Origin: a virus
Lineage: Duplodnaviria > Heunggongvirae > Uroviricota > Caudoviricetes
DNA: 48,357 bases
Strand: one strand, 5' to 3'
Virus record (IMG/VR): IMGVR_UViG_2718217867_000003
Location: 1-48,357 of that record
Shown here: in pieces, positions 33,666 through 33,752 of the stretch
How positions within the stretch are numbered: the first letter of the stretch is position 1
Layout of the letters: every line of letters begins with the position of its first letter
Notes under the pieces: model-generated
Database searches by the model: none
The model's input: the letters and a program-made list of their open reading frames with translations, nothing else
What the model was told of the DNA's origin: nothing
Made by a program: the position numbers and the translations under genes

Positions 33666-33752
33666 ATGGAAAACAACAAATTTGCACATTACGTTCCTTT
33701 TTTATCTGTAATACTTTTTGTTTTATGCTGTGCGTGGGCATTATTTTTATAA
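33666..33752 (+). CDS. possible small hydrophobic peptide (28 aa, MENNKFAHYVPFLSVILFVLCCAWALFL)
   Basis: ATG with AAGGTGAG SD; single predicted TM helix; about 300 nt upstream of nuclease-domain gene on same strand. Confidence 0.3.
   Translation: MENNKFAHYVPFLSVILFVLCCAWALFL

Follow-up and report, generated by a model that had tools for sequence, protein, structure and literature searches.

The locus and its genetic setting

The stretch of DNA analyzed here (the window, 48,357 nucleotides) is a Rac-like lambdoid prophage of Escherichia coli, in which early-right transcription runs on the minus strand. Its phage genes were assigned with Pfam, and the RefSeq annotation of near-identical loci agrees with these assignments. 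A gap of 654 nt separates the start of the DUF1367 gene from an island gene that begins at 34047, and a small open reading frame (ORF) of 28 codons lies within it, on the strand opposite to that of the phage genes. The main features around this ORF are as follows.

31964-32626, minus strand: DUF1133/Q-type antiterminator gene (Pfam)
32503-32793, minus strand: YbcO/DUF1364 gene (Pfam)
32793-33392, minus strand: DUF1367 gene (Pfam)
33425-33480, minus strand: conserved leader 5' of the DUF1367 gene, with the promoter-like sequence TTTACA-16-TATACT from 33478 to 33451 (10/12)
33653-33659, plus strand: Shine-Dalgarno (SD) sequence AAGGTGA, read from the sequence; its AGGTGA core ends 6 nt 5' of the ATG
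33666-33752, plus strand: small ORF of 28 codons, ATG to TAA, encoding MENNKFAHYVPFLSVILFVLCCAWALFL
33774-33846, minus strand: remnant of the hok mRNA 3' untranslated region, from alignment to the ATCC 8739 hok and K-12 hokD (Qin) flanks
36619-37038, minus strand: DUF977 gene (Pfam)

The encoded peptide has a polar N-terminus (residues 1-9) followed by a single hydrophobic helix that reaches the C-terminus. The mean Kyte-Doolittle hydropathy of residues 10-28 is 2.6, which suffices for one transmembrane helix, and the helix mean stays between 2.3 and 2.7 in all variants of the peptide, so that each of them is a small hydrophobic product of fewer than 60 aa. An earlier, sequence-only reading of this DNA had proposed a 28-aa ORF with a good SD at this position and one predicted transmembrane helix in its product. 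Both proposals are borne out, the former by the sequence and the AAGGTGA motif as read directly, and the latter by the hydropathy of residues 10-28. The AGGTGA core, which we take to be perfectly complementary to the 3' end of 16S rRNA, is part of an SD that is unpaired in the centroid fold of the predicted small-ORF mRNA. Among 96 context-complete copies of the locus, 68 carry AAGGTG and 28 carry the weaker AAAGTG.

The presence of a 28-codon ORF is by itself not beyond chance, against a background of 84 ORFs of at least 20 aa that overlap positions 31500-36500; its conservation, described below, does exceed chance. Two other reading frames were considered as genes and rejected: an 85-aa ORF on the minus strand (33592-33849) contains stops in most homologs, and an overlapping 53-aa ORF in frame +1 with a GTG start contains a stop in one of the allele clades (clade B, see below).

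Distribution and integrity of the ORF

We conducted a BLAST search with 241 nt around the small ORF, which matched 1187 complete E. coli genomes. At approximately 80% identity, the weakest full matches cover only positions 33651-33753 of the window, that is, the SD and the ORF. A 116-nt query of the divergent type, comprising the SD and the ORF, matched 1174 of 5426 complete E. coli genomes (approximately 22%), 1171 of them at a coverage of at least 80%, with a median copy number of one per genome. The ORF is also carried by strain CFT073 (NZ_CP051263.1, 1346808-1346894, minus strand). Among the genome matches, no RefSeq record annotates a feature at the position of the small ORF.

The 28-codon ORF is free of indels in all 10 loci that were fetched by nucleotide similarity (BLAST-anchored), and in IMG/VR all 129 matches to a degenerate pattern over the first 18 codons run on to the same stop codon. 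To avoid circularity in testing the integrity of the ORF, we also chose non-coding anchors. An anchor in the conserved block upstream of the ORF (33534-33579, described below) yielded 129 matches, 126 of them complete, and the ORF is intact in all 126. With the DUF1367 leader as the anchor, 133 matches were obtained, of which three are cut by contig ends; 127 of the 130 complete ones carry an intact ORF 198-206 nt away, and the remaining three are interrupted by insertion sequences. A further 70 copies from metagenomes contain the same alleles and keep the 28 codons. The sequence-only reading had named a lack of conservation in related islands as the observation that would count against the ORF. 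Insertion-sequence interruptions apart, we found it intact in every complete homologous copy and, as shown in the next section, with the signature of frame-specific purifying selection.

The interrupted loci (L150, 2517-2566; L151; L152) hold the sole disrupted copies in the anchored samples, and all of them are insertion-sequence events. IS1 has inserted after codon 16 of the small ORF, the rest of which is lost, and another insertion sequence sits between the nin-side leader and the ORF.

The small ORF is confined to Escherichia and Shigella. When 185,579 species representatives were scanned with a degenerate pattern, only Shigella flexneri and Escherichia ruysiae matched, and a tblastn search against phage and plasmid collections gave E. 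coli prophage DNA only, the two matching 'plasmid' records being chromosome-sized. An exact look-up of four peptide alleles among 15 billion proteins found none of them, which we assume to reflect the skipping of ORFs of this size by gene callers. A tandem query of the clade A and clade B peptides recovered three aberrant forms of the same locus (P0001-P0003), one of which is a read-through fusion and two of which are frameshifts. The peptide matched no Pfam family at E-values up to 10, and profile searches of NCBIfam, PHROGs and PADLOC gave nothing significant. A search for the peptide strings in the searchable full-text library, and in the supplementary data of two small-ORF surveys (Sakai small genes and the Enterobacteriaceae microproteome), found none, and a preprint that surveys Hok makes no mention of a small ORF beside hok.

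Allele clades and selection

The alleles fall into three clades, which differ from each other at 14-18 of the 87 nt and show no indels. Between clades, the flanks of the small ORF are unalignable or gap-rich.

Clade A: the type of the window, comprising several subtypes
Clade B: represented, for example, by strain 13TMH22
Clade C: one metagenome contig and one IMG/VR contig (L108, 779-865; L183, 10176-10262)

The clade C allele encodes MENNKSAHYAPFLSIILFVCCFIWALFL and is synonymously diverged; its SD has the form AAGGTA. The clade C locus is a prophage remnant adjacent to trkG, and it has no nin genes, no DUF1367, no nin-side leader and no hok. The ORF module and the DUF1367 leader are physically linked in clades A and B.

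Of the six frames, frame +0 alone is open in all alleles, and it is also the frame in which nonsynonymous change is depressed, as follows.

pN/pS, A versus B: 0.34-0.48 in frame +0; 0.60-1.82 in frames +1 and +2
pN/pS, C versus A or B: 0.12-0.21 in frame +0; 0.66-1.78 in frames +1 and +2

We also performed a neutral simulation, in which substitutions of the observed number and type were distributed randomly over the ORF. The ORF stayed intact, with amino-acid changes at or below the observed number, in 5e-3 of the trials for A/B, 4e-5 for A/C and 4e-4 for B/C. Replacements within the helix remain hydrophobic (V/A/I/T and L/F/C/G). Among the first 18 alleles, the numbers of variable sites at codon positions 1, 2 and 3 are 6, 9 and 13, so that the third-position excess is modest. 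These results indicate that frame-specific purifying selection acts on the encoded peptide; given that the sample comprises about 20 distinct alleles of low diversity in three deep lineages, the tests rest on few independent comparisons.

The variable cargo site and the hok neighbor

To the left of the small ORF, the neighbor is constant: 63 loci have DUF1367 there and 31 have another nin-type gene. The sequences to the right fall into at least 14 unrelated clusters among 96 loci. The cargos found there include hok with various genes, IteA/IteS, DUF1971 with QueH, KilA-N, an insertion-sequence transposase, a nuclease with a cytosine methyltransferase and, in approximately 4 of the 96 loci, a KAP NTPase as in the window. 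The site between DUF977 and the nin genes is thus a hotspot for cargo and defense genes. Given that at least 14 different cargos stand beside a constant ORF, the latter is a fixed edge of the phage backbone, on the nin/Q side of the cargo site, and does not belong to any one system.

In some strains, this prophage site holds the anti-phage ATPase-peptidase pair IteA/IteS (L007, L009/L010; approximately 4140-7640), and in others it holds the ATP-dependent nuclease and cytosine methyltransferase, or DUF1971 and QueH.

In the window, the island gene (34047-36519) lies on the strand of the ORF, 295 nt downstream. Its counterpart in strain 789 is an intact protein of 824 aa with an HSDR_N nuclease-like N-terminus and a KAP-family P-loop NTPase. 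The window copy is split into ORFs of 299 aa and 385 aa by two single-base deletions, in a run of A and a run of T, at approximately 34924 and 35152, so that it is either a pseudogene or the product of homopolymer sequencing errors. The sequence-only reading had described the small ORF as lying upstream of the island genes, which is accurate as to position and strand; the link that this wording implies did not hold, with at least 14 unrelated cargos beside the ORF. Its further remark that such peptides are often membrane-acting partners in defense or addiction modules found no support here: the ORF shows no consistent co-occurrence with the island genes and goes with the backbone side of the phage.

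The hok remnant in the window carries a degenerate terminator hairpin, and the hok coding sequence is missing. Homology to hok breaks at approximately 33846, within the hairpin located 3' of the hok stop and about 20 nt short of the expected stop codon. As the homology ends before the hok stop, what remains in the window is the 3' untranslated end of hok; the toxin gene is gone, evidently through the replacement of an earlier cargo by the present island, and the break at approximately 33846 marks the left junction of the present island. An intact hok converges on the small ORF in 48 of 96 loci, with the two stop codons 103-108 nt apart, and another 18 loci, which are window-like, retain the hok remnant only. 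The small ORF lies on the strand opposite to hok and beyond its stop, and is therefore not a member of a mok-hok-sok unit. Loci that are IteAS-linked or belong to clade B or clade C have the ORF but no hok sequence at all.

The upstream block and the predicted transcription unit

A per-column conservation profile was built over 46 distinct sequence variants. It showed two conserved islands, one of which is an AT-rich block upstream and the other the SD with the ORF. The features of the upstream region are as follows.

33534-33579, plus strand: AT-rich block of 46 nt; 13% of sites variable in clade A; A/B identity 85%
33576-33603, plus strand: candidate sigma-70 promoter, ATGCAA (33576-33581), 16-nt spacer, TAATAT (33598-33603)
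33629-33643, plus strand: hairpin AACCCT-ACC-AGGGTT in the predicted 5' untranslated region (UTR); terminator-like when read on the minus strand

The SD and the ORF have 7-20% variable sites, with A/B identities of 80% for the SD and 82% for the ORF. The corresponding values are 53% for the 5' UTR and 33% for the region downstream of the ORF. The block is approximately 85-90% identical across clades and contains the inverted repeat ATTAAAA-N18-TTTTAAT, and the synonymous sites of the ORF reach a pS of 0.6. The higher conservation of the block compared with these synonymous sites suggests a protein-binding site, and the inverted repeat may be the operator of a DNA-binding protein. Clade C keeps the block almost unchanged and at the same distance from the ORF, although it lacks the nin genes. 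This retention without the nin side indicates that the block belongs with the ORF. We infer that it is the part of the promoter region of the ORF that comprises the UP element, the -35 element and the operator.

The candidate promoter predicts a start near 33610 and hence a 5' UTR of about 55 nt. It is the only promoter candidate that is conserved in position, and its 16-nt spacer is fixed in all three clades.

Clade A: ATGCAA-16-TAATAT or TAACAT
Clade B: ATGAAA-16-TAACAT
Clade C: ATGAAA-16-TAGCAT

The -10 hexamer keeps T1, A2, A5 and T6 and varies only at the two middle positions. The candidate scores just 7-8/12, which is below the threshold of the scanning tool, and a consensus promoter scan reported no plus-strand promoter for the small ORF. 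For these two reasons, we treat the promoter as a prediction.

The pairing of the 5'-UTR hairpin is kept by changes on both arms in some clade A alleles (for example, AATCTT/AGGATT), and the hairpin is absent from L008-type alleles and from clade B. At the other end of the unit, IteAS-linked alleles have a hairpin terminator of 15-16 bp located 14 nt 3' of the stop codon. Alleles linked to hok have no hairpin other than the hok terminator, and this lacks a T tract on the plus strand, so that transcripts of the small gene could run antisense into hok.

A probable small prophage gene and the alternatives to it

The edges of the SD and of the ORF coincide with the edges of conservation, selection is specific to one frame and the copies are intact, which makes a genuine small gene very likely. 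Accordingly, the 28 codons very probably constitute a real gene that encodes a one-helix peptide of the inner membrane and has a conserved control region of its own. The ORF is unrelated to the adjoining island and is part of the backbone of Escherichia lambdoid prophages. The explanation that we favor, and regard as probable from these comparative data, is an autonomous small prophage gene for a one-helix membrane peptide that would be expressed in the lysogen from its own upstream block. Transcription would start in the conserved promoter/operator block and run against the early-right operon (replication, nin, Q), and translation from the AGGUGA SD would yield the 28-residue peptide. The peptide would be inserted in the inner membrane through a single helix (residues ~10-28), with the polar N-terminus of nine residues in the cytoplasm. 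Given that the ORF points away from pR and sits at the edge of the cargo site, expression in the lysogen, in the manner of a moron, seems most likely. After induction, converging early-right transcription would oppose the small gene. As the peptide has no homolog of known function, its mode of action can be proposed by analogy only. The most likely action would be to bind or modulate a larger membrane protein, or to perturb the membrane at high dose.

We considered the possibility that the peptide is the toxin of a type I toxin-antitoxin system, that is, a membrane-depolarizing toxin under translational repression by an antisense RNA. Such an RNA could be a cis transcript from a promoter-like site at the start codon, or could come from read-through from hok or the early-right operon. 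The size, hydrophobicity and layout of the peptide resemble those of Ibs, ShoB, TisB and ZorO-class toxins, and in half of the loci hok, itself an established type I toxin, faces the ORF in convergent orientation. However, no type I toxin model in Pfam or NCBIfam, no PADLOC defense model and no Rfam family was matched at the locus. In L008- and L007-type alleles, a promoter-like sequence on the minus strand, TTTCCA-16-CATAAT or TATGAT (9/12), overlaps the start codon, and the window version (33669-33674 to 33646-33651, minus strand) scores 8/12; if active, this site would produce an RNA antisense to the 5' UTR of the ORF. However, its -35 element is the complement of the coding sequence ATGGAAA, clade B does not have the canonical spacing, and no conserved antisense promoter was found across the allele clades. 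In addition, the 5' UTR, which would be the pairing target of such an antisense RNA, is the least conserved part of the unit. In the window, the minus-strand RNA that covers the ORF has a fold with z = -2.6 and a hairpin end followed by a U-rich tract, but the minus-strand folds of three other representatives are unremarkable (z from +0.67 to -1.29), and we rejected this window-only fold as a signal. A 12-nt direct repeat (33505/33671) that could mark a trans-acting antitoxin was also rejected, as it is absent from clade B. Nor are there tandem copies, as seen from the median of one per genome. What speaks for a toxin is thus the look of the peptide and its hok neighbor, and we consider it unlikely that the gene is of this type.

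The plus-strand folds across the ORF are also unremarkable. An inverted repeat (33700-33719/33751-33770) was rejected as a conserved mRNA hairpin, as it is lost in clade B and in L007-type alleles.

The possibility that the ORF is incidental to a non-coding element (a promoter, terminator, insulator or RNA that keeps the nin/Q operon apart from hok and the cargo site) appears improbable. It would account for the fact that the most conserved piece of the region is the non-coding block 33534-33579, and it fits the terminator-like hairpins on the minus strand and the weakness of the plus-strand promoter. However, substitutions are strongly biased towards synonymous ones in frame +0 only, conservation begins at the SD and stops at the stop codon, the 87 nt are free of indels despite indel-rich flanks, and no RNA structure is common to the clades on either strand. 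Still less probable is a role as a membrane-acting accessory subunit of the adjacent HSDR_N and KAP P-loop NTPase system of the island. KAP NTPases are often membrane-associated, and the ORF lies on the strand of the island gene, 295 nt upstream of it. This idea is already contradicted by the distribution: the NTPase occurs in only about 4 of the 96 loci, among at least 14 downstream cargos, and the ORF co-occurs with the nin-side backbone and persists in clade C with neither of them. In the window itself, the hok 3' remnant separates the ORF from the island gene, and the latter contains two frameshifts whereas the ORF is intact.

We regard as the most improbable of all the notion that the ORF encodes a lipoprotein-type signal peptide or is the N-terminal remnant of a longer gene. 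Non-significant similarity was seen to NCBIfam Lp6.6 (E = 0.08) and to a PHROG Rz-like spanin (E = 0.24), and Cys21 is invariant, being preceded in clade B by residues that give F-A-G-C or F-A-C-C. However, the commonest alleles read F-V-L-C or F-V-F-C. A Leu or Phe at -1 violates the lipobox consensus [LVI][ASTVI][GAS]C, which only minor clade B alleles approach. The mature lipoprotein would span just 7-8 residues, the same stop codon is used in all three clades, and no longer homolog was found among 5.8 billion proteins.

Comparison with known small membrane peptides

Small single-helix regulatory membrane peptides of enterobacteria include MgtR (30 aa), KdpF (29 aa), PmrR (29 aa), AcrZ (49 aa) and MgtS (31 aa). 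The peptide resembles these in its length of approximately 30 aa, its one hydrophobic helix and its short polar end, as well as in having its own small transcription unit (predicted here) and in being missed by annotation pipelines. It differs from them in that it shows no sequence similarity, is encoded by a prophage and does not lie beside the gene of a partner protein.

With the E. coli type I toxins (Ibs/Sib, ShoB/OhsC, TisB/IstR-1, ZorO/OrzO, DinQ/AgrB and Hok/Sok), it shares a short, very hydrophobic peptide encoded by an SD-led intergenic ORF, and it has hok as a neighbor at about half of its loci and a hok remnant in the window. Unlike these toxins, however, it matches no family and shows no conserved signal of an antisense or divergent sRNA, its 5' UTR shows little conservation and tandem repeats are absent. 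It also departs from the mok/hok/sok architecture, as the small ORF lies downstream of the hok 3' end and outside it.

Phage morons are genes expressed in the lysogen from their own promoter and terminator and located between phage operons, such as bor and lom of lambda. The small ORF is like them in being opposed to the surrounding phage operon, in its own conserved upstream block, in the strong terminator of some alleles and in its location at a mosaic boundary beside a variable cargo site. As regards a promoter and terminator of its own, we found the candidate promoter of 7-8/12 and a strong terminator in IteAS-linked alleles only. In contrast to classical morons, the ORF is far smaller and is the constant flank of a variable site, not itself variable.

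We give a low probability to two more specific roles taken together: a new kind of type I-like toxin, with mutual regulation of hok and the small gene through overlapping 3' ends, or a lysogen peptide that guards the boundary of the defense hotspot. The latter could act, for example, in superinfection exclusion or in gating the cargo of abortive infection. In either case, the peptide would be the founder of an Escherichia-specific family of prophage membrane effectors that has not been described before, a prospect that we likewise think doubtful. If one of these roles were true, it would concern a gene that is present in approximately 22% of complete E. coli genomes and yet absent from every annotation.

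Significance and further observations

If it is translated, the small ORF is a widespread prophage gene, found in the 1174 complete E. coli genomes noted above and including that of the model uropathogen CFT073, and no annotation pipeline or family library captures it. Comparative analysis alone can thus tell a real 28-codon gene from dozens of chance ORFs nearby. With its position at the fixed edge of a lambdoid cargo site, the ORF is a landmark for the hotspot and a candidate factor of lysogenic conversion. The likely pay-off is modest, as one-helix peptides without an assigned target are numerous.

We also made some observations on the surrounding prophage. The conserved leader 5' of DUF1367 stands upstream of a different nin-type gene in CFT073-like prophages. 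With regard to its sigma-70-like site (10/12), one would not expect the Q operon of a lysogen to be fed by a constitutive promoter. The rem gene of K-12 Qin was considered as a homolog of the small ORF and rejected, as its position is alike and its sequence unrelated. Rfam gave a sub-threshold match to the sRNA STnc100 at 31570-31758 on the minus strand, downstream of the Q-like gene (26.8 bits, where the gathering score is 47; E = 0.006). The annotations of related prophages place tRNA-Gly and tRNA-Thr genes downstream of their Q-like gene, and the window contains no tRNA genes.
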